From UHGV virus genome UHGV-0206901: 26,230 nt of DNA. One strand, given 5' to 3'. The DNA is from a virus. The position numbers and the translations under genes were made by a program. Position 1 is the first letter of the stretch. Every line of letters begins with the position of its first letter. A model generated the notes under the pieces. That model had not been told where the DNA came from. It worked only from the letters and a program-made list of their open reading frames with translations, and ran no database searches. Of the stretch, positions 660 to 25,184 are shown one piece after another.

Positions 660-821
660 AAATGCTTGTAACAGTTTTATGCCTTACTTACATGATGATC
701 ATCATCCTGATCCATGCGATCTGGATATCTTCGATCATCAAGCATGACGGGAAATGCCACTACAACGACTGCGGTCACTGTCCGTATGATGCCTGGTGTC
801 CGATGCAGGAGGAGGAAAAAC

Positions 822-1307
822 ATGACACTGACAGAGAACTTCATTCGTGATGCGATACAGCTTGACAGCGGTGCAGAGGTCATGTACGGCAGCAATCAGA
901 TCTATGACACCTATCCCTGCCGCTTTCCGACTGTTGAATTTCAGCTCATGGCAACGGATACCCTTGTGGAGGTTGCAGACCGCATCCGCATGGAGAAGGG
1001 CTACTTTCCGATGCATCCGTGGGACGGACGCACGGATGATGTGGACTGCGATGGTTGGTACGACTTTTATATCGGGATCAGCAAGCTCCCCGGCGACCAT
1101 CAGCAGTGCCAGCTTGACAGCAGTATCAGCTTTGTTGTTGTCAATTCCGATTCGGATGACAACGAGGATATGTACAACATCGACCTGACGGAATCCGAAA
1201 AGGAATATGTGTATGAGATACTGAACCGACAGTGCCGGAGGTATCACGGCAAGGACTGCGCCGAACTTCTGGCAGAGTCTGAAAAGGAGCTGATGGATAC
1301 AGCATGA
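822..1307 (+). CDS. Hypothetical protein
   Basis: ORF track 714-1307; internal ATG at 822 is preceded by GGAGGAGG (808-815) with a 6-nt spacer; stop overlaps the nrdD start (ATGA at 1304-1307); no recognisable motif. Confidence 0.5.
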   Translation: MTLTENFIRDAIQLDSGAEVMYGSNQIYDTYPCRFPTVEFQLMATDTLVEVADRIRMEKGYFPMHPWDGRTDDVDCDGWYDFYIGISKLPGDHQQCQLDSSISFVVVNSDSDDNEDMYNIDLTESEKEYVYEILNRQCRRYHGKDCAELLAESEKELMDTA

Positions 1308-3451
1308 GAATTATCAAGCGAAACGGCGCAGAGGTGCCGTATGACTGTGAAAAGATCAGAGCCGCAATTACTGCGGCAAACGATGAGATGGATTCCGGCG
1401 ACAGGATCACAGATACAGTAATCGGCTTTATCGTCGGCAGAGTCGAGCAGCGGTGTGAGACGCTTGCAAGACCTGTCCATGTCGAAGAAGTCCAGGACAT
1501 GGTTCTAGATGAGCTTGACAAAGCCGAGGCTTACAAACTTGCACGGCACTACAGCGAATACAGACTCCTGCATGAACAGCAGCGCAGGATGAATACCACG
1601 GACGGAAAAATTCTCAGCTTGCTGGAACGCAATAACGAGGAGGCAAAGCAGGAGAATGCGAACAAGAACCCGATCATCAACAGCACGCTCCGGGACTATA
1701 TGGCAGGCGAAGTCAGCAAGGACATCTGCCGTCGCTTCCTGTTCCCAGCAGATGTGATCGCCGCCCACGATGACGGCATCATCCATGTACACGATCTGGA
1801 CTACATCGCAGAGCCGATGCACAACTGCTGTCTGGTCAATCTTGAAGATATGCTCCAGAACGGTACGGTCGTATCCGGTACAATGATCGAAAAGCCGCAC
1901 AGCTTTTCCACTGCGTGTAACATTGCTACACAGATCATTGCGCAGGTCGCGTCGAACCAGTACGGCGGGCAGACAATTTCTCTGGCACATCTTGCGACTT
2001 TTGTGGATGTCAGCAGACAAAAGATCAGAGCCGAGGTATCTGAGGATGTGAACTGCGACTGCGGCGCAAAGCTGTCGGCGGAAGAACTCGACCATATCGT
2101 TGAGAAGCGTGTGCGCCGGGAAGTCAAGCGTGGTGTACAGACCATCCAGTACCAGATAAACACACTGCTCACCACCAACGGGCAGACTCCGTTTGTGACG
2201 GTGTTTATGTATTTGGACGAGGTGTCGGAGGGACAGACCAGAGATGACCTTGCGCTCATTATCGAGGAAACGCTGCTTCAGCGTATCGAGGGTGTGAAAA
2301 ATGAGAAGGGCGTCTGGATCACCCCGGCATTCCCGAAGCTTATCTATGTTCTCGATAAGGGTAATATCACCGAGGACAGCCGCTATTGGTATCTTACGAA
2401 GCTTGCCGCAAAATGCACGGCAAAGCGTATGGTTCCTGACTATATCTCCGCCAAGATCATGAAGAAGCTGAAGGGTGATGTGTATGCCTGCATGGGCTGC
2501 CGCAGTTTCCTCACGCCTTCGGACGATCACAAGTATTACGGCAGATTCAATCAGGGTGTTGTCACGCTGAATCTGGTGGATGTGGCGTGTTCTTCCAACG
2601 GTGATATGGACAAATTCTGGCAGCTTCTGAATGAACGCTGCGACCTATGCTTCAAGGCTCTGATGTGCAGGCATGAGCGGCTGAAAGGTACGCCGTCTGA
2701 TGTTGCGCCGATCCTCTGGCAGAACGGTGCATTGGCACGACTCGGCAAGGGTGAAACAATCGACAAGCTGCTGTATAACAATTACAGCACCATTTCACTC
2801 GGCTATGCCGGCATCGCAGAAATGACCTACCGCATGACGGGCTGTTCGCATACGGAGCCGGACGGAAAAGTATTTGCACTTGCAGTGATGAAATTCCTGA
2901 ATGAGAAGTGTGCGGCATGGAGAGAGCAGACAGGGATTTCTTTCTCCCTGTACGGCACGCCGATGGAATCTGTGACCTACAAATTCTCTCAGTGCTTACA
3001 GCGCAGACACGGTATTATCCCTCATGTGACGGATAAAAACTACATCACAAATTCGTATCATGTTCACGTTACTGAGCCGATTGACGCATTCAGCAAGCTG
3101 ACATTCGAGTCCGAATTTCAGGAGCTTTCACCGGGCGGTGCGATCAGCTATGTGGAAGTGCCGAATATGCAGCACAATATTCCTGCGGTACTTGCACTGA
3201 TGCGGCATATCTACGAAACGATTTTGTACGCCGAACTGAACACCAAATCTGATTACTGTCAGGCTTGCGGCTATGACGGCGAAATACAGATCGTGGAGGA
3301 GGACGGCAAGCTGATCTGGGAATGCCCGAACTGCGGCAACCGCGATCAGCGGACACTGAATGTATGCCGCCGCACCTGCGGTTACCTCGGAACGCAGTTC
3401 TGGAATCAGGGGCGCACCGCTGAGATCAAAGACCGGGTGATGCACCTGTGA
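1304..3451 (+). CDS. nrdD: Anaerobic ribonucleoside-triphosphate reductase (class III RNR)
   Basis: 715 aa; N-terminal ATP-cone-like region (MRIIKRNGAEVPYDCEKIRAAI); C-terminal zinc ribbon CQACG...CPNCG; glycyl-radical motif RRTCGYLG close to the C-terminus; followed directly by the activase gene. Confidence 0.93.
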   Translation: MRIIKRNGAEVPYDCEKIRAAITAANDEMDSGDRITDTVIGFIVGRVEQRCETLARPVHVEEVQDMVLDELDKAEAYKLARHYSEYRLLHEQQRRMNTTDGKILSLLERNNEEAKQENANKNPIINSTLRDYMAGEVSKDICRRFLFPADVIAAHDDGIIHVHDLDYIAEPMHNCCLVNLEDMLQNGTVVSGTMIEKPHSFSTACNIATQIIAQVASNQYGGQTISLAHLATFVDVSRQKIRAEVSEDVNCDCGAKLSAEELDHIVEKRVRREVKRGVQTIQYQINTLLTTNGQTPFVTVFMYLDEVSEGQTRDDLALIIEETLLQRIEGVKNEKGVWITPAFPKLIYVLDKGNITEDSRYWYLTKLAAKCTAKRMVPDYISAKIMKKLKGDVYACMGCRSFLTPSDDHKYYGRFNQGVVTLNLVDVACSSNGDMDKFWQLLNERCDLCFKALMCRHERLKGTPSDVAPILWQNGALARLGKGETIDKLLYNNYSTISLGYAGIAEMTYRMTGCSHTEPDGKVFALAVMKFLNEKCAAWREQTGISFSLYGTPMESVTYKFSQCLQRRHGIIPHVTDKNYITNSYHVHVTEPIDAFSKLTFESEFQELSPGGAISYVEVPNMQHNIPAVLALMRHIYETILYAELNTKSDYCQACGYDGEIQIVEEDGKLIWECPNCGNRDQRTLNVCRRTCGYLGTQFWNQGRTAEIKDRVMHL

Positions 3452-3915
3452 ATTACTGCGGTCTGAATAAAAACGACATCGCCAACGGTGACGGTGTACG
3501 AGTTTCGCTGTTCGTATCCGGATGCCGGAATCACTGCAAGGGCTGTCACAACCCGGAGACATGGGATTTCAGCTATGGACAGCCTTTCACCAAGAAAACT
3601 GAAGATGAGATCATCGAAGCCCTGCGTCCCTCGTGGATACAGGGGCTTTCTGTTCTCGGCGGTGAACCCTGCGAGGAAGAAAACGAGCGTGTGCTGCTGC
3701 CGCTGCTGAAAAAGATCTGGTGGGAGATGCCGGAAAAAGATATTTGGCTGTATAGCGGGTACACCTATGAACAGTTGCAAGGCAGAGCGATACTTCGGTA
3801 TGTGGATGTACTTGTGGACGGTCCGTTTCTGCTGGAGCAGAAGGATATCTCGCTTCCGTTCCGCGGCAGCCGGAATCAACGGATCCTCCGATTAAGAAAT
3901 GGGGTACGGGTATGA
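3448..3915 (+). CDS. nrdG: Anaerobic ribonucleotide reductase activating protein (radical SAM)
   Basis: GTG start overlapping the nrdD stop (GTGA); N-terminus MNYCGLNKNDIANGDGVRVSLFVSGCRNHCKGCHN matches the canonical NrdG N-terminus, including the CxxxCxxC radical-SAM cluster. Confidence 0.9.
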   Translation: MNYCGLNKNDIANGDGVRVSLFVSGCRNHCKGCHNPETWDFSYGQPFTKKTEDEIIEALRPSWIQGLSVLGGEPCEEENERVLLPLLKKIWWEMPEKDIWLYSGYTYEQLQGRAILRYVDVLVDGPFLLEQKDISLPFRGSRNQRILRLRNGVRV

Positions 3916-4229
3916 GAGCCAGACTGAGACCGCCAGGAGATGCCGTTCGCTGCGATGCCTGCGGATGTGCATTTGTTCCGGAAACACTGACGCAGCGTGA
4001 GGGTGAGATCGAATACAGCTTCTTCCGCTGCGACTATTGCGGCAAGGCGTATCTCGTATCCGTTACGGATGCAGACCTCTGCAAGGATATCCGCAGATAC
4101 AGAACGCTTGCGGAAAAGCACAAGATCAAGCCCCTGAGTGAACAGTCGCTCCGCGAGATGGCTGCGCTGAAAGAGCAGAACTTAAAACGAGCCGCAAAGC
4201 TGCGGCAGTTGTACTATGTGGAGGGATGA
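3912..4229 (+). CDS. Zinc-ribbon protein, function unknown
   Basis: 105-aa ORF whose ATG overlaps the nrdG stop; two CxxC pairs (CDACGC, CDYCGK); basic C-terminal tail. Confidence 0.5.
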   Translation: MRARLRPPGDAVRCDACGCAFVPETLTQREGEIEYSFFRCDYCGKAYLVSVTDADLCKDIRRYRTLAEKHKIKPLSEQSLREMAALKEQNLKRAAKLRQLYYVEG

Positions 4230-4230
4230 G

Positions 4231-5514
4231 ATGAAGACAGCAGAACTTCGTGTGATCCCTGTCACGGAGCTGAAGCCTGCGGCATATAACCCGCGCAAAA
4301 AGCTGAAGCCCGGCGACAAGGAATACGAAAAGATCAAAAACAGCATCGAGGAATTCGGCTTTGCCGATCCGCTGGTAGTCAACGCCGACATGACCATCAT
4401 CGGCGGGCATCAGCGACTGACCGTAGCGATGGCGCTCGGATACACCGAGGTACCCTGTGCGGTGGTGGACATCGACAAGGTCAGAGAAAAGGCGCTGAAC
4501 ATTGCGCTCAACAAGATCACCGGCGCATGGGACGAGAGCCTTCTGGCTGAACTGTTGCAGGACATTCAGGACAGCGACTTCGACCTCGGAAAGACCGGCT
4601 TTGATCCGCCGGAGATCGAGCAGCTTTTCAATCAGGTACACAATAAAGACATCAAGGAAGATGACTTTGATATTGAAGAAGAGCTGAAACAGCCGACCTT
4701 CTCAAAACTCGGTGACCTGTGGATTCTGGGCAAGCACCGTATCGTCTGCGGTGACAGCACCAAGTCGGAAACCTACGAGCTGCTTATGAACGGTGAAAAA
4801 GCAAATCTCCTGCTGACCGATCCGCCGTACCTCGTAGCATACAGCAATACCTCCGGCAGCATCAAGAACGATGACCTTTCGGATAAGGAAGGCTATGAAT
4901 TCCTGAAAAGCGCATTTGCCTGTTTCAAAGAGAACCTTGCAGATGATTCTGCGGTGTATGTTTTCTACGCGACATCAAAATCGAGGGTGTTCTATGACGC
5001 TTTCGAGGATGCCGGATTCCGTGTTTCTTGCGGATTGGTCTGGCGCAAGGACAGGCTTGTGCTGTCGAGGACGGACTATCAGCAGAACTTCGAGCCTGTG
5101 ATCTACGGCTGGAAAAAGAACGGCAAGCACACATGGTACGGTGACCGTAAGCAGACCACCTGCTTTGACTTCGACCGTCCGAAAAGCTCCAAAGCCGAGG
5201 GTGAGGGACATCCGACTGCAAAGCCTGTACCGCTGATGGCATATCTCATCAAGCAGTCCACCATGACAAACGGCATTGTGCTGGACGGCTTCCACGGTTC
5301 CGGTTCTACCATGATCGCCTGTGAACAGCTCGACCGAAAATGCAGAGCTGTAGAATTGGATGAAAAGTTTGTGGACGTTCAAGTGAAGCGGTATATCAAA
5401 TTCCGCGAGGGCAAGTACGATGATGTGTATGTCATCCGTGACGGGCAGAAGCTTTCCTTCGATGAAGCGGTGGCAGCGATGCCGACAGCAGAGGGTGGTG
5501 ATACGAATGGGTGA
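4231..5514 (+). CDS. ParB-like nuclease domain fused to a DNA amino-methyltransferase (probably N6-adenine; beta-class motif order)
   Basis: ATG at 4231 preceded by GGAGGGA; N-terminal ParB/Srx-like region (ELKPAAYNPRK...IIGGHQRL); central LLLTDPPY (motif IV) precedes GFHGSGST (motif I), the beta-class order. Confidence 0.85.
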   Translation: MKTAELRVIPVTELKPAAYNPRKKLKPGDKEYEKIKNSIEEFGFADPLVVNADMTIIGGHQRLTVAMALGYTEVPCAVVDIDKVREKALNIALNKITGAWDESLLAELLQDIQDSDFDLGKTGFDPPEIEQLFNQVHNKDIKEDDFDIEEELKQPTFSKLGDLWILGKHRIVCGDSTKSETYELLMNGEKANLLLTDPPYLVAYSNTSGSIKNDDLSDKEGYEFLKSAFACFKENLADDSAVYVFYATSKSRVFYDAFEDAGFRVSCGLVWRKDRLVLSRTDYQQNFEPVIYGWKKNGKHTWYGDRKQTTCFDFDRPKSSKAEGEGHPTAKPVPLMAYLIKQSTMTNGIVLDGFHGSGSTMIACEQLDRKCRAVELDEKFVDVQVKRYIKFREGKYDDVYVIRDGQKLSFDEAVAAMPTAEGGDTNG

Positions 5515-6310
5515 ACTGAAACCTCTGCTTCATGTGGTCTCCTTCAGCGGCGGGAAAGACAGCACTGCGATGCTCCTGAAGATGTTAGAAATGGGAATGC
5601 AGGTTGATCTGGTGCTGTTTTGCGATACCGGATTAGAATTCCCGGCACTGTATGACCATGTACACAAAGTCGAACAGGATACCGGCGTGAAAATCACGAC
5701 TGTAAAGAGCGAAAACACATTTGAGTATCTCATGCTCCACAAGCCGATCAAGCGGAAGAAACCGGAACTGCGCGGCAAGACCGGTTACAGTTGGGCGGGA
5801 CCGCTGATGCGGTGGTGTACAAACCTTCTGAAAACGGTGCCTCGTGAGAAGTTTCTCAGCGAACTGCGGAAAAATTACGATGTGATCGAGTACATCGGCA
5901 TCGCCGCCGATGAAACGGAACGCATCACGCACAAATGCAGCTGCCGACCGAATGTCCGTCTGCCGCTTGTGGAGTGGGGCATGACCGAAGCTGACTGCCT
6001 GCAATACTGCAGGGAACGCGGCTATGACTGGGGCGGTCTGTATGAGAAATTCGGACGGGTATCCTGTTGGTGCTGTCCGCTGCAGCCGCTGAACGAGCTG
6101 CGTGTCCTCTACTACGATTTTCCCGACCTCTGGAAACAACTCAGGGAATGGGATGATGCAACATGGCGCACCTTCAAGCCCGGATGGTCAGTCCGGAAAC
6201 TGGAGGCGCGTTTTGATTTTGAGCTGGAATGGCAGACGGACGGCAATCAGCTCGGCACAAAGGAATTCCACAAAGCCCTGAAAAAGAGACTGGAGGATGT
6301 CGATGGCTGA
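5507..6310 (+). CDS. PAPS-reductase-like PP-loop protein (DndC-like fold family), possible DNA-modification accessory enzyme
   Basis: Internal ATG at 5507 with upstream GAGGGTGGTGA; PP-loop motif SFSGGKDS near the N-terminus; C-terminal cysteine cluster CWCCP; 8-nt overlap with the upstream methyltransferase gene and 8-nt overlap with the downstream one. Confidence 0.75.
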   Translation: MGELKPLLHVVSFSGGKDSTAMLLKMLEMGMQVDLVLFCDTGLEFPALYDHVHKVEQDTGVKITTVKSENTFEYLMLHKPIKRKKPELRGKTGYSWAGPLMRWCTNLLKTVPREKFLSELRKNYDVIEYIGIAADETERITHKCSCRPNVRLPLVEWGMTEADCLQYCRERGYDWGGLYEKFGRVSCWCCPLQPLNELRVLYYDFPDLWKQLREWDDATWRTFKPGWSVRKLEARFDFELEWQTDGNQLGTKEFHKALKKRLEDVDG

Positions 6311-7082
6311 TGTGAAATGTGAGCTGTATCACGATAACTTCCAGAACTTCAAATCCTACTGCATCCCAAAAGCACAGCTCGTCATTGCTGACATTCCGTA
6401 CAACATCGGCGGCGACTTTTATGCCAGCCGTCCCGACTGGTATGTGAACGGTGACAATCAGAACGGTGAAAGCAGCAAAGCGCACAAGGCTGCATTCCAC
6501 ACGGATTACACCTTCAACATCGCTGAATACTTCGCCTTCTGTAACCGGCTGCTCAAAAAGGAGCCGTCCAAAGGTGAGAAGGATGCTCCCTGCATGATTG
6601 TATTCTGTGCCTTTCAGCAGATACCCGAGGTCATCCGGCAGGCGGAGAAATACGGCTTCAAGAAGTATCAGTTTTTGTGCTTTATGAAGAATTACAGTCC
6701 GCAGGTGCTGAAGGCGAACATGAGGATCGTGGGCGCAACGGAGTTTGCTCTGGTGCTGTATCGGGGAAAGCTGCCGAAGTTCCGCAATACCGATGCATAC
6801 GGCAAGAGGCACATGATCTTCGACCATTTTGACTGGATGCGGGACGGCAAGGATATCCCGAAGATACATCCTTCGCAGAAGCCGGTAAATCTCCTGAAAC
6901 GGCTGATCGGGATATTTACCGACGAGGGTGATGTGGTCATCGATCCCTGCGCCGGTTCCGGCTCAACGCTGCGTGCGGCGAGGGAGCTTGGCAGACACAG
7001 CTACGGCTTTGAAGTCAGCCGAGATTTTTACAACAAAGCCTGTGAGCAGATGCTTGGGGAGGTGCAGGATGACAAAGTATGA
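6303..7082 (+). CDS. DNA amino-methyltransferase (N6-adenine or N4-cytosine), divergent motif IV
   Basis: ATG at 6303 is 6 nt after GGAGG; IADIPYN (variant DPPY-type motif IV) near the N-terminus and DPCAGSGST (motif I, AdoMet binding) near the C-terminus. Confidence 0.7.
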   Translation: MADVKCELYHDNFQNFKSYCIPKAQLVIADIPYNIGGDFYASRPDWYVNGDNQNGESSKAHKAAFHTDYTFNIAEYFAFCNRLLKKEPSKGEKDAPCMIVFCAFQQIPEVIRQAEKYGFKKYQFLCFMKNYSPQVLKANMRIVGATEFALVLYRGKLPKFRNTDAYGKRHMIFDHFDWMRDGKDIPKIHPSQKPVNLLKRLIGIFTDEGDVVIDPCAGSGSTLRAARELGRHSYGFEVSRDFYNKACEQMLGEVQDDKV

Positions 7083-7284
7083 GTGCGCCATTGTGACGGC
7101 ATACACAGATATCTCGATGCTGTGCGGCGATGATCTGAAATATCTGTATGACTATCTTTCCGGCTTTATCGGCAGACCGGTGTATACACACGAGATTCCT
7201 GCGGTGGCTGCGGCTTACAGAGACAAGATCAGAGAGGACTTCCTCGATCTGTGCAGGAACGCAAAGGAGGCGGATGATGGATAA
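7069..7284 (+). CDS. Small hypothetical protein
   Basis: 71-aa ORF starting at an internal ATG of ORF 6928-7284, overlapping the upstream methyltransferase stop; no recognisable motif; the 11-nt overlap with the next gene suggests translational coupling. Confidence 0.4.
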   Translation: MTKYECAIVTAYTDISMLCGDDLKYLYDYLSGFIGRPVYTHEIPAVAAAYRDKIREDFLDLCRNAKEADDG

Positions 7285-9487
7285 GAAACACTTGACCCTC
7301 GGCAGCCTGTTTGACGGCTCGGGGGGGTTTCCGCTTGGCGGCATCCTCGCAGGGATCGAGCCGAAGTGGAGCAGCGAAATTGAACCTTTTCCGGTGCTTG
7401 TCACGCACAAGCGACTGCCTGGGGTGAAGCACTACGGCGATGTATCCACACTGAACGGTGCAGAGCTTCCGCCGGTGGATATTATCACCTTCGGCAGCCC
7501 TTGTCAGGATCTGTCCATTGCTGGAAAGCGTGCCGGAATCCATGACGGTGATCGGTCGAACCTGTTCTTTCAGGCGATCCGTATCATCAAAGAAATGAGG
7601 GATGCAACAAATGGACAATACCCGCGATACTGCGTCTGGGAGAATGTCCCCGGCGCTTTCTCCTCCCACGGAGGAGACGATTTCAAAGCTGTCCTCGAAG
7701 CAGTTATCGGAATTAAAGAAGAAGGGATCGAGGTGCCTGCGCCTGAAAATCACAGATGGGCAAAATCAGACGTATATCTGGGAGACGGATGGAGCGTGGC
7801 TTACCGAGTTTTCGATGCTCAATACTGGGGTGTCCCCCAACGCAGAGCAAGAATCTACCTTGTCGCAGATTTTGCTGGCGGAAGTGCCGGAGAAATACTA
7901 TTTAAGTCCGAAGGCGTGTCTGGGTATACTCCGCAGGGCTTCCGTTCGTGGCAAGGAACTGCCGGAGGTGCTGAAGAAAGCACTGGAGCGACAGGCTGGC
8001 GGTCTGACGCTGGAGGTGGAACCCTCTGCGTAAACTGTCAGGGCACGGCAGGTGTCGGTATCACAGAAGATAAGGCACTGGCACTTGTCGCACAGGATCA
8101 CGGGAATCATCCAGCCGTTCTTGCCGCAGGTTTTTCCACAGAGCATAGTGCAAAAGCACGAAGCATCGGCTACGAAGAGGAAGTATCTCCTACACTGAGA
8201 GCTGGTGTTGTTCCGGCGGCAATGGAGCTTCAAAGCTATCCCGTTGAAAATCATCCTGCGGATTCGAGAGTCAGGGTGCGTGAGGACGGAAAGTGTCAGG
8301 GGCTTACAGGCAGAATGGGAACAGGCGGCGGAAACGTACCGCTTGTAGCAGAACCGATTACGCTAAAAATCCGCAGTGGTGGCGGAAATGGTGGTAAGGG
8401 CGCTATCTGGCAAACAGATAAATCCGCAACTCTTGCAACCAATAATGACCAGACGCTTTTTCAGCCGGAGGTCAAGGCTTTCGGTGTATGCAGCAAGCAC
8501 TCCAATGCGATGATGTCCGACAATCCGCACAGCGGATTCTATGAGGCGACCACAAGCAGAACGCTCGACCAAAGTGGTGGAAATTCTGTGACATCGAATC
8601 AGGGCGGCATCTGCGTGGTAGCACCTGCGCCTGAAACCTTCGATGTGCGTTTCACATCAGACGGTACAAAAAACGCTCGTGGGCATTGTTACCCGACAGA
8701 CATTTCCCGATGCCTTGATACGAGCGAGGCGAACCCGGACAGCAATCACGGAGGAGTTGCGGTGGTGGCTCTCGAACCGGGGGCGGCATCCCGTATCGGC
8801 GGTCATGTATACAGTGACGGCAAAAGCGGCACGCTCCGTGCAAATGCCGGAGACAATCAGCAGGCTGTTGTGGTAGCCGAGAAGGAGACCTATGCACTGC
8901 AAGGCTCGATGATCGGTCGCGCCGATCAGAACGGACCGCAGGGTGATGGTATCAATGAAGATGTGTGCTTTACGCTGAACACAACAGACAGGCATGCTGT
9001 CGCAGCACCGGATGCCGATCACTACAGCACAAGCAAGAATTCTCACCACACAGTCGCCGCACATGAACAGGCAAACACGCTGGTCGCATCCGACTGGAAG
9101 GATCCTCCGCTTGTGAACGACCTTCCGAATGACGAGCCGGTATATATCGTTCGTCGTCTGACTCCGGTGGAGTGCGCCAGATTGCAGGGATTCCCCGACT
9201 GGTGGTGTGCCGACCTTGCGATTCCCGATCCGACCGATGAGGAGATCACCTTCTGGATGGAAGTATGGGAAACTTGGAGACAGATCACAAATCCCAAGGG
9301 AAAGCCGAAAACGGAAAAGCAGATCCGCAAATGGTTGGCTGATCCGTACACGGACAGTGCCGAGTACAAGTTATGGGGCAACGGTGTCTCAGAGCCCGTT
9401 GTGTTCTTCGTGCTATCCGGCATTGCCTGGGCGGCACAGAATTCTGAAACTAATGCAGCAAATTGTGAACATTCTGATACTATGTAA
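7274..9487 (+). CDS. DNA cytosine-5 methyltransferase with an exceptionally long variable (target-recognition) region, possibly multispecific
   Basis: ATG at 7274 preceded by AAGGAGG (7264-7270); motif I LFDGSGG, motif IV GSPCQDLS, motif VI ENVPG, motif VIII QRRARIYLV, C-terminal RRLTPVECARLQGFPDWW; about 480 aa lie between motifs VIII and IX. Confidence 0.9.
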   Translation: MMDKKHLTLGSLFDGSGGFPLGGILAGIEPKWSSEIEPFPVLVTHKRLPGVKHYGDVSTLNGAELPPVDIITFGSPCQDLSIAGKRAGIHDGDRSNLFFQAIRIIKEMRDATNGQYPRYCVWENVPGAFSSHGGDDFKAVLEAVIGIKEEGIEVPAPENHRWAKSDVYLGDGWSVAYRVFDAQYWGVPQRRARIYLVADFAGGSAGEILFKSEGVSGYTPQGFRSWQGTAGGAEESTGATGWRSDAGGGTLCVNCQGTAGVGITEDKALALVAQDHGNHPAVLAAGFSTEHSAKARSIGYEEEVSPTLRAGVVPAAMELQSYPVENHPADSRVRVREDGKCQGLTGRMGTGGGNVPLVAEPITLKIRSGGGNGGKGAIWQTDKSATLATNNDQTLFQPEVKAFGVCSKHSNAMMSDNPHSGFYEATTSRTLDQSGGNSVTSNQGGICVVAPAPETFDVRFTSDGTKNARGHCYPTDISRCLDTSEANPDSNHGGVAVVALEPGAASRIGGHVYSDGKSGTLRANAGDNQQAVVVAEKETYALQGSMIGRADQNGPQGDGINEDVCFTLNTTDRHAVAAPDADHYSTSKNSHHTVAAHEQANTLVASDWKDPPLVNDLPNDEPVYIVRRLTPVECARLQGFPDWWCADLAIPDPTDEEITFWMEVWETWRQITNPKGKPKTEKQIRKWLADPYTDSAEYKLWGNGVSEPVVFFVLSGIAWAAQNSETNAANCEHSDTM

Positions 9488-9526
9488 GCTGTTCTGTATG
9501 GGCTTTCCGTGATATGCACAATCTCA

Positions 9527-9542: not shown

Positions 9543-9564
9543 GTACATTCTACGATTTACAGTC

Positions 9565-12940: not shown

Positions 12941-12942
12941 AA

Positions 12943-17044: not shown

Positions 17045-17074
17045 GCAGATTTTTTGAGAAAAGGAGTGATGCGG

Positions 17075-17548
17075 ATGGCTCAGAGAGGCAGAAAACCGAC
17101 GCCGACAGCAATCAAGGAACTGGAAGGCAATCCGGGCAAGCGTCCGCTGAATGATGCAGAGCCGAAGCCGGAACGCAAGGCACCGCCCTGTCCGAAATGG
17201 CTGGAGCCCGAAGCAAAAAAGGAATGGCGCAGGCTGTCAAAGCAACTGGAGCAGATTGGTGTGCTGACCGAGGTCGATCAGGCGGCATTCGCATCCTACT
17301 GTCAGGCATACGCACGATGGAAAGAAGCCGAGGAATTCATGACACAGCACGGCACGATCGTGAAAACAAAATCAGGTTACTGGCAGCAGGTGCCGCAGGT
17401 ATCCATTGCACAGACCTATCTGAAGATCATGAATAAGATCGCAGAACAGTTCGGTCTGACTCCTGCCGCAAGAAGCAGGATCACCGCAGGTGCGGATATG
17501 AAGGACGCTGCCGTTGACGATATGGATGAACTTCTCGGAGGTGACTGA
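17075..17548 (+). CDS. terS: Terminase small subunit
   Basis: AAGGAG 8 nt upstream of the ATG at 17075; 157 aa; basic N-terminus (RGRKPTPTAIKELEGNPGKRP) and overall pattern typical of P27-family small terminases; sits directly upstream of, and overlaps, the large terminase. Confidence 0.8.
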   Translation: MAQRGRKPTPTAIKELEGNPGKRPLNDAEPKPERKAPPCPKWLEPEAKKEWRRLSKQLEQIGVLTEVDQAAFASYCQAYARWKEAEEFMTQHGTIVKTKSGYWQQVPQVSIAQTYLKIMNKIAEQFGLTPAARSRITAGADMKDAAVDDMDELLGGD

Positions 17549-20214
17549 TGGCGAGAACGGCAAAGGCAAGAGAAAGACCTGCCAACTATCCGAAACTGAA
17601 GGATTATAAACCGACACGCTTTATGCTGCCGGAATCGCACTACGATGCGGCAAAGGCTGACCGAGCTGTGCGGTTCATCGAGAATCTCTGCCATACCAAA
17701 GGACGCTGGGCAGGAAAGCCGTTCTGGTTGCTGCCGTGGCAGGAACAGATCATCCGGGATATTTTCGGCATCGTCAAAGAGGATGATACCCGCCAATTCC
17801 GCACAGCTTATGTCGAAATTCCAAAGAAAAATGGGAAGCAGCTTGCACTGGATACACCGATCCCGACTCCGCAGGGATTCACCAATATGGGAGATCTGAA
17901 GGTCGGAGATACAGTATTCGATGAAAACGGCATTCCGTGCCATGTGGTTGCGAAAAGTCCTGTGGATGATACAGAGCAAGCCTACAAGCTGACCTTCAAG
18001 GACGGCAGCTCGATCATCGCCGGAGAACGGCATCTGTGGAACTGTCAGTATATTTACGGCAAACGCAAGGATGTTCTCTGGACGACCGGCGAGATCTATC
18101 GCAGGACTTCAGAATACAGACGGCGATTCTCAGACCGACCGCAGTCAAAGCGGGATTCTCTGATCCGAATTCCGGTGTGCGGTGTCCTTCAGACAGAAGC
18201 GGCAGTTTTACCGATTGATCCGTATCTGTACGGCTACTGGCTCGGAAACGGTAATGTGACCATGCCGGAGATCACTGTTCGGACGGAGGATGTCGAGGAT
18301 ATCATCTCGAATATTCCGTATAAGGTACACAACCGTTATCCGCAGAAATGCGGCGGCAGTGAGATCATAAAGTACAATGAACTGAAAGCAGTACTACTTG
18401 ACAGCTTCCGTGAAAAGAAGATCCGACCAGAATATCTGAGGGCATCCGCAGAGCAGAGATGGGCATTACTGCAAGGGCTTATGGATTCGGACGGCTGTAT
18501 CGGTGAACGCAAAGGGCAAAGTGTGTATGTCACAACGCTGCGAGAGCTGGCGCTTTCCGTCAGAGAACTGCTGTGGTCGCTCGGTATCAAAAATGCAGTG
18601 AAATGTGAGCCTTCTACTCGGCATGGGTGGCCGACTGGAGAGATTTTGTATATCGTCCGGTTTACTACCTTTGACGATCAGCCGACATCAAGACTGAAAC
18701 GAAAGTACACACGCACACGGGCGCGGGTGAAAGAAACTCGCTCCTGTTTTCATTATTTACTGGACATTCAGCCTGTGGATCATCCTGTGAAAATGCAGTG
18801 TATTCAGGTGGATAGTCCTAGCCACCAATATCTTGCTGGAACATCGTTTGTGCCTACGCACAACAGTGAGCTTGCAGCCGCAATTGCGCTGTATCTGCTC
18901 TACGCTGACAACGAGCCATCCGCCGAGGTCTACGGTGCTGCCGCCGACCGACAGCAGGCATCCATTGTATTCGATGTCGCCAAAAGAATGGTTGAGATGA
19001 CACTGGCACTTCTGAAACGCTCAAAAATCATGGCGGCGACAAAGCGTCTGGTGAATTACAGCAATGTCGGTTTCTATCAGGTGCTTTCGGCGGAGGTCGG
19101 AACAAAACACGGTCTGAATGTATCTGGGCTTGTGCTTGACGAGCTTCATGTTCAGCCGAACCGTAATCTTGTGGACGTTCTCACAAAGGGATCCGGTGAT
19201 GCCCGTACTCAGCCGCTGTACTTCCTGATCACCACAGCCGGCACTGACCGAAACAGCATCTGCTATGAATACCACACCAAGGCAAAAGACATCCTCGAAG
19301 GGCGGCGTATCGATCCGTCATTCTATCCTGTCATTTACGGTCTGGATGACGGCGACGACTGGAATTCAGAGGAATCGTGGTACAAGGCAAATCCGTCTCT
19401 CGAATACACAATTACCATAGACCGTGTGCGGGATGCCCATCGTGAAGCACTGACAAATCCTGCGGAAGAAAATGTATTCCGTCAGCTTCGTCTTGATCAG
19501 TGGGTTGGCAGTGCGGTTGCATGGGTGCCGGAGCATATCTACGACAAAGGCAATATACCAATCAATCCGGAGTCTCTGTACGGACGCGAGTGCTATGCAG
19601 GACTGGACCTTTCCAGTACATCTGATATCACGGCATTTGTTCTGGTATTCCCACCGTTGTATGAGGGTGATAAATACATCGTTGTACCCCACTTCTGGCT
19701 GCCGAGGGAAACACTTGACCTGCGTGTACGGCGAGACCATGTTCCCTACGATGTATGGGAGCGCATGGGGCTATTTCATATCACCGAGGGCAATGTGGTG
19801 GACTACAACTTCGTGCGGAAAACGATCAATGAGCTGCACACGATGTATAACATCAAGGAAATTGCAGCAGACCGCTGGAATGCCACACAGCTTATCACCG
19901 ACCTGCAGGGTGACGGTTTTACCGTTGTCCCGATGGGCATGGGCTTCAAGGATATGTCGCCACCGATGAAGGAGCTTTACAAGCTGCTGCTTGAGGGCAA
20001 GTTTATCCATGGCGGAAATCCTGTCCTGCGATGGATGGCAGGAAATGTGGTCGCTGAAATTGACGCGGCGGAAAATATCAAGCCGTCCAAGAAAAAGTCT
20101 ACAGAGAAAATTGACGGCATCGTAGCATGGATCATGGCACTTGACCGCTGCATCCGCCACGAAATGCAGGGCAGTGTCTATGACGAACCCGGCCACGATC
20201 TTGTGGTCATCTGA
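17548..20214 (+). CDS. terL: Terminase large subunit, interrupted by an in-frame intein at the Walker A (P-loop) site
   Basis: 888-aa ORF; N-extein ends ...EIPKKNGK and C-extein begins SELAAAIALYLLYADNEPSAEVYGAAADRQQ, which together rebuild a canonical PKKNGKS P-loop; C-terminal nuclease-domain-like region; followed by the portal gene. Confidence 0.92.
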   Translation: MARTAKARERPANYPKLKDYKPTRFMLPESHYDAAKADRAVRFIENLCHTKGRWAGKPFWLLPWQEQIIRDIFGIVKEDDTRQFRTAYVEIPKKNGKQLALDTPIPTPQGFTNMGDLKVGDTVFDENGIPCHVVAKSPVDDTEQAYKLTFKDGSSIIAGERHLWNCQYIYGKRKDVLWTTGEIYRRTSEYRRRFSDRPQSKRDSLIRIPVCGVLQTEAAVLPIDPYLYGYWLGNGNVTMPEITVRTEDVEDIISNIPYKVHNRYPQKCGGSEIIKYNELKAVLLDSFREKKIRPEYLRASAEQRWALLQGLMDSDGCIGERKGQSVYVTTLRELALSVRELLWSLGIKNAVKCEPSTRHGWPTGEILYIVRFTTFDDQPTSRLKRKYTRTRARVKETRSCFHYLLDIQPVDHPVKMQCIQVDSPSHQYLAGTSFVPTHNSELAAAIALYLLYADNEPSAEVYGAAADRQQASIVFDVAKRMVEMTLALLKRSKIMAATKRLVNYSNVGFYQVLSAEVGTKHGLNVSGLVLDELHVQPNRNLVDVLTKGSGDARTQPLYFLITTAGTDRNSICYEYHTKAKDILEGRRIDPSFYPVIYGLDDGDDWNSEESWYKANPSLEYTITIDRVRDAHREALTNPAEENVFRQLRLDQWVGSAVAWVPEHIYDKGNIPINPESLYGRECYAGLDLSSTSDITAFVLVFPPLYEGDKYIVVPHFWLPRETLDLRVRRDHVPYDVWERMGLFHITEGNVVDYNFVRKTINELHTMYNIKEIAADRWNATQLITDLQGDGFTVVPMGMGFKDMSPPMKELYKLLLEGKFIHGGNPVLRWMAGNVVAEIDAAENIKPSKKKSTEKIDGIVAWIMALDRCIRHEMQGSVYDEPGHDLVVI
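17839..18864 (+). mobile_element. Intein (~342 aa) with an embedded double-motif LAGLIDADG homing endonuclease, inside terL
   Basis: Block A-like LALDTPIPT...GDLKVGDTVF; block B GERHLW; two LAGLIDADG motifs (LYGYWLGNGNV and LLQGLMDSDGCI); terminal ...FVPTHN followed by Ser +1. Confidence 0.8.
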
Positions 20215-20229
20215 CAGGAGGTAATGTTT

Positions 20230-21612
20230 ATGAGCTTTTTAAGCTGGCTCGGCATCAGCAAGCCGAGAGATGCGCCGATGCTGCCTGATATTCAGGACAA
20301 TGTCCGTGATTCTGGAAATCTGTTCGTATTCGGCATGACGCACAGCGGTGAACGTGTCGATGAGCGCACGGCGATGCAGATCGTGACTGTTTACGCCTGT
20401 GTTCGACTGCTCTCCAACACCATCGCAGGACTGCCGCTGCACCTATACAGATACACCGGCAAGGGCGATGATAAGGAATTAGCCATTGACCATCCGCTGT
20501 ACAAAATACTCTATCGGCAGCCGAATCCCGAAATGAGTTCATTCTCGTTCTGGGAAGCACTGATGTGCCACCTTTTACTATGGGGCAACGCCTATGCACA
20601 GATTGTCCGGGACGGCAAAAACGGCATCCTCGGTCTCTATCCCCTGCTTCCCGAAAATGTCGAGATCGACCGTGATCCGAAATCCGGCGACCTGATCTAC
20701 ACTTACCACGCCTACACCGACGAAAAGCCCGGTGAGCATGACAAGGATATTATCTTCCGCAGGGATGAAATCTTACACATCCCCGGTCTGGGATTCAATG
20801 GACTGGTCGGTTTCTCACCGATAGCGATGATGAAAAATGCACTCGGTGCGGTCATGGCAGTAGAGCGATACGGCAGCGCCTTCTTCAAAAACGGAGCGCA
20901 GCCTGCCGGAGTTCTCGAACATCCGGGCGTGCTGAAGGATCCGCAGAAGATCCGCGACAACTGGACAAAGGCATACGGCGGCGCACGGAACGCACACCGC
21001 ATCGCAGTCCTCGAAGAAGGTATGCAGTATAAGCCAATCTCCCTGCCGCCGGAGGATTCGCAGTTTCTGTCCACAAGAGAATTCGATGTGGAGGAAATCT
21101 GCCGGATGTTTCAGGTTCCGCCGCATCTGGTACAAGACCTCAAACGCAGTACCTTCAATAACATCGAGCATCAGGGTATTGCATTTGTGCAGTATTCTCT
21201 TATGCCGTGGATCATTCGCATCGAAAAGGGCATCATGAAAGACCTTCTTCTGGAGGAAGAACAGAATGTATATTTCCCGAAATTCAATGTGGACGGTCTG
21301 ATGCGCGGCGACTACCAGAGCCGAATGAACGCCTACGCTATCGGTGTCGGCAACGGCTTTATGTCGCCCAATGATGTGCGCCGTCTTGAAAATATGGACT
21401 TGATCCCTGACGATCAGGGCGGCAACGACTACTACCTGAACGGCTCGTATAACAAGCTGGAGGATGCAGGTGCGGCATATGCTCTGAATCAGCCGCAGGA
21501 ACAGCCGGATACCGAGGAACAGGATGAGCCGGACGAGAATCCGGGCGAAGAAACCGATGACAGATTCCTGCGAAAAAAGCGCAGGAAGAAATACAAGAAT
21601 GGGGGTATGTAA
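20230..21612 (+). CDS. Portal protein (HK97-like family)
   Basis: AGGAGG 8 nt upstream of the ATG at 20230; ~460 aa; position immediately after terL; sequence features typical of HK97-type portals; acidic C-terminus. Confidence 0.88.
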   Translation: MSFLSWLGISKPRDAPMLPDIQDNVRDSGNLFVFGMTHSGERVDERTAMQIVTVYACVRLLSNTIAGLPLHLYRYTGKGDDKELAIDHPLYKILYRQPNPEMSSFSFWEALMCHLLLWGNAYAQIVRDGKNGILGLYPLLPENVEIDRDPKSGDLIYTYHAYTDEKPGEHDKDIIFRRDEILHIPGLGFNGLVGFSPIAMMKNALGAVMAVERYGSAFFKNGAQPAGVLEHPGVLKDPQKIRDNWTKAYGGARNAHRIAVLEEGMQYKPISLPPEDSQFLSTREFDVEEICRMFQVPPHLVQDLKRSTFNNIEHQGIAFVQYSLMPWIIRIEKGIMKDLLLEEEQNVYFPKFNVDGLMRGDYQSRMNAYAIGVGNGFMSPNDVRRLENMDLIPDDQGGNDYYLNGSYNKLEDAGAAYALNQPQEQPDTEEQDEPDENPGEETDDRFLRKKRRKKYKNGGM

Positions 21613-22545
21613 ATGGAAAAGTTCTGGAATTGGATCCACGATGACAGCAGCGGCAGAGTTCTTCGTCTCGAAGGTCCTATCGACTCGGAGAGCTTCTGGG
21701 GTGATGAAATTACGCCGCAATCTTTCCGCGATGAACTGTATGCCGAGGAGGGTGACATTACACTTTGGCTGAATAGTCCAGGCGGCAATGTGTTCGCAGC
21801 AGCAGAAATTTACACGATGATACGTGATTATCCGCACAGGGTAACGATAAAAATCGCAAGCATTGCAGCATCGGCGGCGAGCGTGATTGCTATGGCAGGA
21901 AATACTGTGCAGATGTCTCCGACCGCACTCCTGTTCGTGCATGATCCGTCCACAATTGCGATGGGAAACGCCAAGGACATGGAAAAAGCCATCGCAACAC
22001 TGAATGAGGTCAAAGAGAGCATCATCAACGCATATGCCGCAAAAACCGGACTCAGCAGAAACCGCATCAGCAAGCTCATGTCGGACGAGACATGGATCAA
22101 TGCGAAAAAGGCAGTTGAGCTGGGCTTTGCAGATGAGATTCTGTTCGATGAAAAGTCCAAACCGGACAAGAAGGATGAGCCTGACGATCCGGAGGAGGAT
22201 AAGCCCGAAAAGCCCGACGAGGAAGGCGGTGACGAGGACGGGGATGAAAAGAAGGAAACAGAAAAGAAGCCGTTCAAACTAGAATCCGGCGATGCCCTTT
22301 GGCAGTACAGTACCCGTATCATGGGGCAGACCATCTTGGGAAAGATCACCGCTTCCGCAGCACACGAAGGCACAGAGCCGCCCGATGACGGCAAGGCAGA
22401 TGATGCCCAGAAACCTTCCGAGGAATGGCTGACCGCACCGACAGTTACAGTGCCGGATATGCCTGTGATCGGCATGGACGGTAAAACCGCAGACGGCGCA
22501 ATGCCGTATGAAATTCTGAAACAGCAGCTTGCATTTTTGAGATAA
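21613..22545 (+). CDS. ClpP-family prohead (head maturation) protease with a C-terminal extension
   Basis: LWLNSPGGNVFAAAEIY and IASIAASAASVIAMAG (Ser nucleophile region) plus LLFVHDPS (His) match the ClpP/S14 fold; positioned between portal and capsid; ~130-aa acidic C-terminal extension. Confidence 0.85.
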   Translation: MEKFWNWIHDDSSGRVLRLEGPIDSESFWGDEITPQSFRDELYAEEGDITLWLNSPGGNVFAAAEIYTMIRDYPHRVTIKIASIAASAASVIAMAGNTVQMSPTALLFVHDPSTIAMGNAKDMEKAIATLNEVKESIINAYAAKTGLSRNRISKLMSDETWINAKKAVELGFADEILFDEKSKPDKKDEPDDPEEDKPEKPDEEGGDEDGDEKKETEKKPFKLESGDALWQYSTRIMGQTILGKITASAAHEGTEPPDDGKADDAQKPSEEWLTAPTVTVPDMPVIGMDGKTADGAMPYEILKQQLAFLR

Positions 22546-22601
22546 GGCTGGCTGTATTTTTATGCGACACCGGATTTTATCCGGAGAAATGGAGAAAAGA
22601 T

Positions 22602-23855
22602 ATGAGCAAGATCATGGAACTTCGCAGTAAACGTAATACCCTGTGGGAGCAGACAAAGGCATTCCTCGAAAAGCACCGTGGTGAGAACGATCTCGTGGAG
22701 GCATCCGCAGTTGAGCAGTACAACAAAATGGCCGGTGAGGTGCAGGCTCTCGGTGCAGAGATCGAGCGTCTGGAACAGCAGGCAGCCGTGGATGCGGCAC
22801 TTTCCGCACCGACCTCCAAGCCCGTCACCAACGCTCCCGGCGCAAAGAACACGCCGCCCACTAACCCGACCGCAACGGACGAGTACAAGTGTGCGTTCTG
22901 GGATATGATCCGCAACAAGGGCGATCAGCTTGTAGTCCGCAACGCACTCTCTGTCGGTGAGGACACCGAGGGCGGCTACACTGTGCCCGACGAGTTCGAG
23001 CGCCGTCTGATTCAGGCGCTTGAGGAAAACAACATCTTCCGCCAGATGGCAACGGTCATCAAGACCAATTCCGGTACCCGCAAGATCCCGATCGCCAATG
23101 ACACGATGGAAGCACAGTGGATCGATGAGGGTGAGGAGATCCCGGAGACCGATACTCGTTTCGGTCAGACCACGCTCTCCGCATACAAGCTCGGCACAAT
23201 GATCAAGATCAGCAACGAGCTTCTGCACGATTCCGCCTTCGACCTCGCAAGCTATATCGCTGCACGTTTCGGTGTGGCAATGGGCAACGCCGAGGAAAGA
23301 GCGTTCTTCACCGGTGACGGTGACAAGAAGCCCCTCGGTATTCTCGATGAGACCGGCGGCGCTGAGCTTGGTGTCACTGCGGCATCTCAGACTGCGATCA
23401 CTTTCGATGAGATCTTCAACCTCTACTACAGCCTGAAGTCTCCCTACCGCCGCAACGCACAGTTCGTCTGCAACGAGACCATTCTCCTTCAGCTCATGAA
23501 GCTGAAAGACAAGAACGACAACTACCTCTGGAAGCCGAGCCTTGATATCGCAAAGCCGGATACACTTCTCGGCAGACCGATCCGCACCTCTTCCTTCATG
23601 CCCGCAATCGCCAAGGGTGAGCGTGTGCTGCTCTTCGGCGACATGAAGAACTACTGGGTGGCTGACCGTCAGAACCGCACCTTCCGCCGTCTGAATGAGC
23701 TGTATGCCCGCACCGATCAGGTCGGCTTCCTCACCACGCAGCGTGTGGACGGCCGTCTGATCCTGCCGGAATCCGTCAAGGTTCTCAAGATGGCTGGAAC
23801 AAAGGCTACTACGACTGGCGGTAACACCGGCGGCGGTGCAGGCGGCAACGGCTGA
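22602..23855 (+). CDS. Major capsid protein, HK97-like fold with N-terminal delta/scaffold-like coiled coil
   Basis: 417 aa; GGAG 7 nt upstream; coiled-coil-like N-terminus (EVQALGAEIERLEQQAAVDAA); capsid-family-like core; position after the protease. Confidence 0.9.
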   Translation: MSKIMELRSKRNTLWEQTKAFLEKHRGENDLVEASAVEQYNKMAGEVQALGAEIERLEQQAAVDAALSAPTSKPVTNAPGAKNTPPTNPTATDEYKCAFWDMIRNKGDQLVVRNALSVGEDTEGGYTVPDEFERRLIQALEENNIFRQMATVIKTNSGTRKIPIANDTMEAQWIDEGEEIPETDTRFGQTTLSAYKLGTMIKISNELLHDSAFDLASYIAARFGVAMGNAEERAFFTGDGDKKPLGILDETGGAELGVTAASQTAITFDEIFNLYYSLKSPYRRNAQFVCNETILLQLMKLKDKNDNYLWKPSLDIAKPDTLLGRPIRTSSFMPAIAKGERVLLFGDMKNYWVADRQNRTFRRLNELYARTDQVGFLTTQRVDGRLILPESVKVLKMAGTKATTTGGNTGGGAGGNG

Positions 23856-23873
23856 TGAACGGAGGGCAGATAA

Positions 23874-25180: not shown

Positions 25181-25184
25181 AAAA

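Follow-up and report, generated by a model that had tools for sequence, protein, structure and literature searches.

Class III (anaerobic) ribonucleotide reductases (RNRs) of phages have been known since T4. The locus described here raises two questions: whether a complete enzyme of this class is encoded together with its activase, and whether these genes belong to a phage or to the chromosome of its host. The window, that is, the whole stretch of DNA analysed, comprises 26,230 nucleotides of the virus genome UHGV-0206901. The original prediction placed at 1304–3915 a phage-borne class III RNR and a radical-SAM activase, which would suit an obligately anaerobic host and provide dNTPs independently of host regulation. 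As shown in Table 1, these limits coincide exactly with two ORFs, nrdD and nrdG, which overlap by 4 nt.

Table 1. Features of the window around and downstream of nrdDG
Feature	Position	Strand	Description
u161	822..1307	+	Conserved acidic ORF, 161 aa, no functional assignment
nrdD	1304..3451	+	Class III (anaerobic) ribonucleoside-triphosphate reductase, ATG start, 715 aa
nrdG	3448..3915	+	Radical-SAM activase of NrdD, GTG start, 155 aa
zn105	3912..4229	+	Cys-rich (zinc-ribbon-like) ORF, 105 aa, final gene of the four-gene overlapping string
DNA-modification block	4231..9487	+	Pfam and PHROG matches, source-contig gene calls
Packaging and virion module	17054..25832	+	PHROG matches, ten consecutive genes, E 1e-17 to 1e-173

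The reductase, its activase and the surrounding gene string

First of all, NrdD scored 901.7 bits against NCBIfam NF006732 (cut-off 657), with residues 1–715 covered, and 433.8 bits against TIGR02487 (cut-off 326). Pfam located an ATP-cone at aa 1–91 (PF03477, 61 bits against a cut-off of 25.8, aligning to the StNrdD cone), NRDD at aa 117–714 (E 8e-191) and Gly_radical at aa 591–696, and phrog_487 was matched end to end (E 2e-204). The glycyl-radical motif RTCGYLG is found at aa 690–696, with G693 as the radical glycine, and the zinc ribbon consists of C652-x2-C655 and C674-x2-C677, which are aligned with the Cys pairs of T4. C175, C399 and N416 are the catalytic residues, and the motif M397-G-C399 resembles the Met-x-Cys of the E. 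coli enzyme. In the alignment with T4 NrdD (1h78), C175 corresponds to T4 C79, C399 to C290, N416 to N311 and G693 to G580; position G580 is Ala in the crystallised T4 mutant. The catalytic, zinc-ribbon and glycyl-radical residues are invariant in 40 of the 40 members of the phage clade described below, and the position of the radical glycine is unchanged across 163 aligned NrdD sequences. By these family matches and residues, the ORF is identified as a full-length, intact class III ribonucleotide reductase, and the complete enzyme that had been predicted from RTCGYLG, zinc ribbon and ATP cone is borne out by NF006732, by Pfam and by the T4-aligned residues. The nrdD gene of T4 carries a group I intron, whereas that of the window is uninterrupted. 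Rfam models had no match anywhere in the window, so that nrdD has neither an associated riboswitch nor an associated group I intron.

The neighbouring ORF is identified as NrdG, the radical-SAM activase of NrdD, as had been proposed, from 177.2 bits against TIGR02491 (cut-off 126.1), a Pfam match to Fer4_12 (E 3e-49) and an end-to-end match to phrog_626 (E 2e-54). It contains the CX3CX2C [4Fe-4S] motif as C26-RNH-C30-KG-C33, with GGEP at aa 71–74. The E-values exclude chance as the source of the family matches of both NrdD and NrdG.

The two genes stand in a string of four, u161-nrdD-nrdG-zn105, in which each stop/start pair overlaps by 4 nt: ATGA between u161 and nrdD, GTGA between nrdD and the GTG start of nrdG, and ATGA between nrdG and zn105. 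From this arrangement the string is read as co-directional and translationally coupled. Promoter- and terminator-like sites in positions 1–10000 were not above the shuffled expectation, so operon boundaries were not set; moreover, the first position of the window is also the contig end, so the operon promoter and the remainder of the early region lie outside its view. The last gene, zn105, matched phrog_1315, a family without known function (E 2e-12), its Pfam zinc-ribbon matches were all sub-threshold, and it occurs in most relatives, not all (it is missing in the relative L002, for example).

The first gene, u161, is under purifying selection and lies directly 5′ of nrdD in all 38 phage loci that encode it, and it was not found beside cellular nrdD genes. 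Its only Pfam match, to Imm31, was sub-threshold; NCBIfam and PHROG searches gave no match, and its AF2 model (pLDDT 72) had no match in BFVD by Foldseek at E <= 0.001. The linkage to nrdD counts as weak evidence because nearly the whole module is syntenic, and u161 may be an accessory of nrdDG or merely a linked neighbour. That u161 would act, specifically in phages, as a partner of their class III RNR, such as an adaptor or chaperone of NrdD, or an inhibitor or decoy directed against a host factor, is a tentative suggestion with little probability.

Phage context and origin of nrdDG

The ten genes of the packaging and virion module encode TerS, TerL, the portal, the prohead protease and the major head protein, followed by four connector proteins (adaptor, head closure, neck and tail terminator) and the major tail protein. 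Their PHROG matches include phrog_83 (E 3e-59), phrog_9 (E 1e-173), phrog_12 (E 3e-141), phrog_94 (E 1e-81), phrog_10 (E 8e-113) and phrog_88 (E 4e-62), plus others. By this gene content the window is identified as part of a tailed, siphovirus-like dsDNA phage (Caudoviricetes), and nrdDG is on the same strand as the packaging, head and tail genes, which make up a complete module. TerL carries an intein-like LAGLIDADG insertion (Pfam TerL_ATPase, TerL_nuclease and LAGLIDADG_3). Between nrdDG and the virion module, the DNA-modification block contains genes for a ParB_N-N6/N4 methylase, a PAPS-reductase-like protein, an N6/N4 methylase, DUF7736 and a C5 cytosine methylase, and this block, which is syntenic with nrdDG in the relatives, points to a phage setting for the module. 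No integrase was found in the window, whose first position is the contig end; in the relative L002, a pair of an HTH_3 repressor and an M78 peptidase was observed.

The gene content also bears on whether the element could be a plasmid, an ICE or a phage-plasmid, with nrdDG serving the cell and not the virus. The region and its relatives contain ParB_N, DUF932, a PemK toxin, SNF2 and several methylases, features that conjugative elements often carry too, but a full tailed-phage set (terminase, portal, protease, capsid, connectors and tail) lies on the same strand, and the window showed neither a relaxase nor genes for type IV secretion, which makes such an element improbable. A phage-plasmid lifestyle is conceivable, but would leave the identity of nrdDG unchanged.

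The nrdDG module is syntenic in 42 other phage-like contigs, of which about 35 are IMG/VR viral contigs, and the NrdDs that carry it are 71–93% identical to that of the window. In contig L156, nrdD is joined to TerS, TerL and portal at 92–96% identity. In the relatives, the phage replication genes SNF2 helicase, primase-helicase and DUF3310 are located directly upstream of the module, and phage methylases and the terminase are downstream of nrdDG. When the window was compared by megablast with 50,697 deposited phage genomes, the matches were only fragmentary (the best at 70.6% identity and limited to the nrdD gene), so no named relative is given.

The comparison of NrdD with phage and chromosomal homologues, proposed as a check of phage origin, gave a phage-specific clade. 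In a neighbour-joining tree of the 80 best matches per collection, which is not an exhaustive maximum-likelihood analysis, the module-bearing NrdDs form a single bipartition in 200 of 200 bootstraps, apart from the chromosomal Bacillota NrdDs. The clade nests among Bacillota sequences on its own stem. The nearest chromosomal Bacillota NrdDs are 66–70% identical to that of the window, and of the chromosomal copies recovered none exceeds 70% and none has the module; likewise, among 585 genome matches there was no chromosomal nrdDG with more than 90% DNA identity to the phage copy. Within the core clade, dN/dS is 0.05–0.09 for nrdD and 0.05–0.17 for nrdG, whereas in comparison with the most distant module-bearing relatives nrdD reaches 0.126, and with the most distant relative nrdG reaches 0.256; these values are approximate, as dS is high (0.6–1.6).

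These results weigh on the possibility that nrdDG is a recent and perhaps decaying "moron" copy from the current host, without a selected role in the phage. Host metabolic genes are often picked up by phages, and the NrdD clade does nest among Bacillota; yet the closest chromosomal NrdDs are too distant for recent transfer to be at all probable, dN/dS is far below 1 with all catalytic residues invariant, and nrdDG sits within overlapping ORFs with no promoter- or terminator-like signal above chance. Moreover, members with as little as 71% identity still have the module on a stem of their own, which therefore points to an old capture.

Least credible of all is that the block is host core chromosomal nrdDG, linked to a phage only through mis-assembly or an adjoining prophage insertion: Oscillospiraceae MAGs contain relatives, on contigs of up to 85 kb, and related Bacillota have chromosomal nrdD genes of up to about 70% identity (such as L004, on a 359-kb contig with housekeeping neighbours), but host-core synteny was not found, the same gene order recurs in the 42 independent contigs between phage replication genes and phage methylases and terminase, the module-bearing NrdDs are distinct from all chromosomal copies, the overlapping neighbouring genes leave no junction visible, and there is no compositional break (G+C is even, at 0.49–0.58 across the window and 0.50–0.53 over nrdDG). 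In summary, the prediction that the genes are phage-borne agrees with the same-strand virion genes, the synteny and the clade, and nrdDG is regarded, on tree, synteny and selection, as an old, vertically inherited, selected phage gene set and not host core genome.

Subtype, regulation and proposed role

Among solved structures, the best relatives of NrdD are S. thermophilus NrdD (9d3x, E 1e-124) and T4 NrdD (E 4e-114), whereas T. maritima NrdD2 reached only E 4e-8. Both of the former are NrdD1 enzymes that depend on formate (PMC12662201, PMC4493059). From this similarity and the Met-Gly-Cys motif, the NrdD of the window looks like a formate-dependent NrdD1 type.

In the T4 NrdD/NrdG system (1h78, 1hk8), too, a phage encodes a glycyl-radical NTP reductase and, as a protein of its own, the radical-SAM activase. 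Window residues 100–714 align with T4 NrdD, with the catalytic Cys pair and Asn in common, as well as the zinc ribbon towards the C-terminus and the radical site RxCxYxG; T4 NrdD is a formate-using NrdD1 (PMC4493059), an assignment that for the NrdD of the window is predicted. The differences are that T4 NrdD lacks the N-terminal ATP-cone, so that the alignment begins at window residue 100, and that T4 also encodes an aerobic class I enzyme and has a facultatively anaerobic host, whereas only class III is seen in the window and its host is probably a strict anaerobe. S. thermophilus NrdD aligns over residues 2–715 and shares the ATP-cone, barrel, zinc ribbon and glycyl-radical domain; it is activated by ATP and inhibited by dATP through its cone, with formate as the reductant (PMC12662201). 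Unlike the NrdD of the window, which falls in a separate phage-only clade, it is a cellular enzyme, encoded on the chromosome of a facultatively anaerobic organism.

Of the phage genomes that carry an RNR, 28% are reported to have class III genes, and the phages with class III alone to infect strict anaerobes (PMC3653736). Class-III-only Clostridium phages are also strict-anaerobe phages with nrdD and nrdG only, but their order is nrdG-nrdD (PMC3653736), as opposed to nrdD-nrdG following u161 in the window. The chromosomal nrdDG loci of Lachnospiraceae, Erysipelotrichaceae and Oscillospiraceae encode NrdDs of equal length (66–70% identical) with all functional residues; they differ in having housekeeping neighbours and, usually, NrdR-box-like sites, and in lacking the u161 ORF and the methylase block.

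Among genome bins, Oscillospiraceae MAGs of rumen and gut origin come closest. The host is most likely a strictly anaerobic gut or rumen Bacillota of the Oscillospiraceae, an assignment drawn from metagenomic bins, in which phage contigs can be mis-binned; the predicted obligately anaerobic host is thus plausible, from these bins and from the oxygen-sensitive class of the enzyme.

As for regulation, NrdR-box-like sites within 450 nt upstream of nrdD were found in 0 of 42 phage loci vs 58 of 72 chromosomal loci, a comparison that is not like for like because the 450 nt 5′ of the phage nrdD are mostly u161 coding sequence. A scan of the whole window also found no NrdR box, with 0.57 expected by chance, and thus has little power. 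The lack of such sites fits an escape from host transcriptional control. The predicted independence of host regulation therefore holds in part: upstream NrdR-box-like sites are lacking, but NrdD has kept its ATP-cone and should thus be under allosteric control by ATP/dATP (PMC12662201), and since NrdD looks like a formate-using NrdD1 type, the system would depend on the host for formate, SAM and an electron donor for NrdG.

Taken together, the locus is very probably a functional nrdD-nrdG operon of a tailed siphovirus-like phage that infects strictly anaerobic Bacillota of the gut or rumen, for which we infer activity, formate use, expression timing and host identity. The mechanism, which we infer by homology with NrdD of E. 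coli, T4 and S. thermophilus, would proceed as follows. Upon infection, nrdDG would share a single long, co-directional transcription unit with the genes for replication and DNA modification; NrdG, with its [4Fe-4S] cluster and SAM, would generate a radical on Gly693 of NrdD, which would pass to Cys399, and formate would supply the reducing power for the conversion of NTPs to dNTPs (NrdD1 type, with Cys175 and Met397). The N-terminal ATP-cone would adjust the activity to the ATP/dATP ratio, and the dNTP supply for phage replication would rise without the need for the NrdR-controlled nrd genes of the host.

Phage genes of the kind represented by the nrdDG of the window are well known, and no major question is opened or answered by this locus; the one small oddity of the locus is the conserved u161 ORF before nrdD. 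The result is of use for annotation, and NrdD may serve as a phage marker for anaerobic viromes. It adds one more well-supported case of phages of strict anaerobes with their own class III RNR, that is, a widespread gut and rumen phage lineage in which the nrdDG operon has long been kept under purifying selection, apparently outside NrdR control.

Identity of the nrdD and nrdG genes

The class III ribonucleotide reductase (RNR) that had been read from the sequence, with its glycyl-radical motif, zinc ribbon and ATP-cone, proved complete at 1304–3915, and the gene adjoining it is indeed that of a radical-SAM activase. The nrdD product matches the NCBIfam equivalog NF006732 over residues 1–715 with 901.7 bits (cut-off 657), and its Pfam domains are an ATP-cone (1–91), NRDD (117–714, E 8e-191) and Gly_radical (591–696); the motif RTCGYLG lies at aa 690–696, and the zinc ribbon cysteines are C652-x2-C655 and C674-x2-C677. 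NrdG reaches 177.2 bits against TIGR02491 (cut-off 126.1), matches Fer4_12 in Pfam (E 3e-49) and carries C26-x3-C30-x2-C33 together with GGEP, and existing PHROG families cover both proteins. According to the HMMER alignment to the T4 NrdD structure (1h78), C175, C399, N416 and G693 correspond to T4 C79, C290 (the thiyl-radical cysteine), N311 and G580, respectively, and none of the residues for catalysis, the zinc ribbon or the radical site varies among the 40 clade members examined.

The best solved relatives of the window NrdD are the enzymes of Streptococcus thermophilus (StNrdD, 9d3x, E 1e-124) and T4 (E 4e-114), and the T. maritima NrdD2 enzyme is matched with merely E 4e-8. The triplet Met397-Gly-Cys399 corresponds to the Met-x-Cys of E. 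coli NrdD. StNrdD and T4 NrdD are of the formate-using NrdD1 subtype (PMC12662201; PMC4493059), to which the window NrdD, by similarity, is likely to belong as well. A canonical class III mechanism is predicted as likely: NrdG would use SAM to form a radical on Gly693, the radical would move to Cys399, NTPs would be reduced with formate as electron donor, and the ATP-cone would toggle activity by the ATP/dATP ratio, a switching that has been shown structurally for StNrdD (PMC12662201).

Some close relatives of this NrdD (loci L110–L113, match 10001–13027, and proteins P0017, P0018 and P0028) have 916–1016 aa versus the usual ~715 aa, with insertions of ~200–300 aa, probably inteins, within an NrdD otherwise 89% identical; the window copy is uninterrupted.

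Phage context of the operon

All real genes of the window lie on the plus strand, and the G+C is even over its whole length. The original prediction had placed nrdDG inside a phage block, which is borne out by same-strand PHROG matches running from terminase to tail from 17054, and by the recurrence of the syntenic module (u161, nrdD, nrdG and methylase genes) in 42 loci. The genes separating nrdG from the terminase encode a ParB_N-methylase, a PAPS-reductase-like protein, N6/N4 and C5 methylases, an amidoligase and a gamma-glutamyl cyclotransferase, a set typical of phage accessory genes.

Features of the window and their supporting matches
Feature	Position	Strand	Remarks
u161	822-1307	+	acidic, 161 aa; overlaps nrdD start (ATGA)
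nrdD, anaerobic ribonucleoside-triphosphate reductase	1304-3451	+	ATG start, 715 aa
nrdG, activase	3448-3915	+	GTG start, 155 aa; overlaps nrdD ORF
zn105	3912-4229	+	Cys-rich, 105 aa; phrog_1315, family of unknown function; start overlaps nrdG stop
Methyltransferase block	4231-9487	+	three DNA methyltransferases (ParB_N-N6/N4 fusion, N6/N4 enzyme, C5 enzyme of ~736 aa) and PAPS-reductase-like protein in succession
Amidoligase module	9650-12940	+	three genes, conserved in relatives
Acidic 373-aa protein	within amidoligase module	+	matches amidoligase PHROG 2443
Amidoligase_2 protein	11201-12145	+	
Gamma-glutamyl cyclotransferase	12479-12940	+	
Intergenic repeat cassettes	13858-14082, 14903-14947, 15155-15310, 15689-15900, 16481-16666		43-53 nt, 78-89% identity; ahead of several small genes
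Small terminase	from 17054 onward	+	PHROG, E 3e-59
Large terminase (TerL)	17548-20214	+	PHROG, E 1e-173; 888 aa
Portal	downstream of 17054	+	PHROG, E 3e-141
Head maturation protease	downstream of 17054	+	PHROG, E 1e-81
Major head protein	downstream of 17054	+	PHROG, E 8e-113
Head-tail adaptor, head closure, neck, tail terminator	downstream of 17054	+	PHROG matches
Major tail protein	downstream of 17054	+	PHROG, E 4e-62

The junctions of u161, nrdD, nrdG and zn105 (the last carried by most, not all, relatives) overlap as ATGA, GTGA and ATGA in that order, and promoter-like and terminator-like sites in 1–10000 show no excess over shuffles; therefore, the four genes look like members of a long polycistronic unit rather than an insulated moron. 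The window takes up one end of a metagenome scaffold of 29.9 kb, which limits the upstream view of nrdD to 1.3 kb. Three related loci (L005, L007 and L143) encode directly upstream DUF932, an SNF2 helicase, a PemK toxin, an NrS-1-type primase/D5 helicase, a SAM synthetase, an HNH endonuclease and DUF3310, a phage replication region, and the upstream genes of another (L002) encode a holin, an M15 peptidase, a sigma-factor-like protein and a repressor with an M78 peptidase.

Elsewhere in the window, TerL contains a LAGLIDADG_3 homing-endonuclease domain (aa 303–370), which separates the N-terminal part (aa ~31–100) from the remaining ATPase domain (from aa ~440) and looks like an intein. The catalytic domain halves of the C5 methyltransferase are split by a long Gly/Ala/Ser-rich insertion. 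Among the elements of the intergenic cassettes are a hairpin rich in GC (GGAGCAGGGCTTCGGCTCTGCTCC), a promoter-like TTGCA...TAATAT unit and a common leader that ends in GGAGG..ACCATGAA; the cassettes resemble phage promoter and terminator units present in several copies.

Class III RNRs have been known in phages since T4, and nrdD has also appeared in gut, rumen and termite virome papers. It has been reported that 28% of the RNR-bearing phage genomes surveyed carry class III genes, and that class-III-only phages infect strict anaerobes (Clostridium) and have the order nrdG-nrdD (PMC3653736), whereas the window has nrdD-nrdG. Moreover, the window NrdD has the ATP-cone that T4 NrdD lacks, the T4 alignment beginning at window residue 100, and the operon is flanked by replication genes on one side and a large block of methylase genes on the other. 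IMG/VR contigs encode NrdD 93% identical to that of the window, and no DNA-level resemblance to deposited, named phage genomes was found. These departures from known systems are modest.

Phylogeny of the module and its upstream gene

A protein search returned hundreds of NrdDs at 73–91% identity, and scans of species-representative genomes and IMG/VR gave 160 loci (the best 80 per collection), each then queried with tblastn for the other proteins encoded in the window. Among the matches listed, all 42 loci with NrdD of at least 71% identity, ~35 of them from IMG/VR, carry the module in the order u161-NrdD-NrdG-(zn105)-ParB-methylase-...-C5 methylase-...-amidoligase-GGACT, and L156 and L012 have it with TerS, TerL and portal on a single contig. 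Among those with NrdD of at most 70% identity, tblastn found the module in none (72 genome loci, as well as L004, which lies on a 359-kb contig among DegV, MatE, CorA, ThiC and CarAB). A neighbour-joining tree of 163 similarity-selected sequences groups all NrdDs encoded in the module in one clade (200/200 bootstraps), nested among chromosomal sequences of Lachnospiraceae, Erysipelotrichaceae and Oscillospiraceae. That the block is host core genome is therefore very improbable: among the loci compared, the module is confined to this clade and missing from chromosomal loci, and no conserved synteny in phage-free genomes was found. The nrdD gene is phage-owned, an old capture from a Bacillota host since inherited inside the phage lineage.

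Of the genome bins, five MAGs come nearest (87–91% identity), four assigned to Oscillospiraceae and one to 'uncultured Ruminococcus'; they stem from gut samples of goat, buffalo and other sources. These metagenomic bins point to a probable host in Oscillospiraceae, a family of Clostridia whose members are generally known as strict anaerobes.

Pairwise Nei–Gojobori estimates for the window genes against 16 relatives gave dN/dS of 0.05–0.09 (nrdD) and 0.05–0.17 (nrdG) in the core clade, and at most 0.126 and 0.256 against the most distant module-bearing relatives, values that are approximate because dS is high (0.6–1.6 within the core clade, >2 for some distant pairs). By the same measure, u161 evolves under purifying selection (0.07–0.21). 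It lies directly upstream of nrdD in all 38 IMG/VR loci encoding it, even at ~50% identity, and tblastn of the related loci found it beside no chromosomal nrdD. Its ~323 homologs include none annotated; Imm31 is sub-threshold in the window protein (E 0.029) and barely at the cut-off in one relative (25.4 bits), similarity to p32/Mam33-like proteins is weak, and the AlphaFold2 model (pLDDT 72, pTM 0.63) comprises a helix, a beta-sheet and two C-terminal helices. A role as RNR accessory is improbable, and u161 may instead be a small acidic protein of the phage, unrelated to the RNR, whose gene simply remains linked.

Regulation and dependence on the host

NrdR boxes (consensus ACACWATATWTWGTGT, at most 3 mismatches) were sought within 450 nt upstream of nrdD. 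Such sites were found at 58 of the 72 chromosomal loci versus 0 of the 42 phage-module loci, where the upstream is mostly u161 coding sequence; of the other IMG/VR loci, 2 of 48 had one. The search found none anywhere in the window; the real promoter of the operon lies beyond the contig. With two reservations, this off-contig promoter and the u161 coding sequence upstream, these counts support an escape of phage nrdDG from NrdR control.

In L005 (6257–7348) and L007 (6648–7814), a SAM synthetase (MetK) is encoded a few genes upstream of u161-nrdD, as are a PemK/MazF-like toxin and a primase-helicase. MetK encoded next to a radical-SAM activase and to several methylases that use SAM suggests that these phages supply their own SAM.

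The independence from host regulation originally proposed appears to hold for transcription and not for metabolism: the window NrdD keeps its ATP-cone, and the enzyme would draw on formate and SAM from the host, as well as on a reductant for NrdG.
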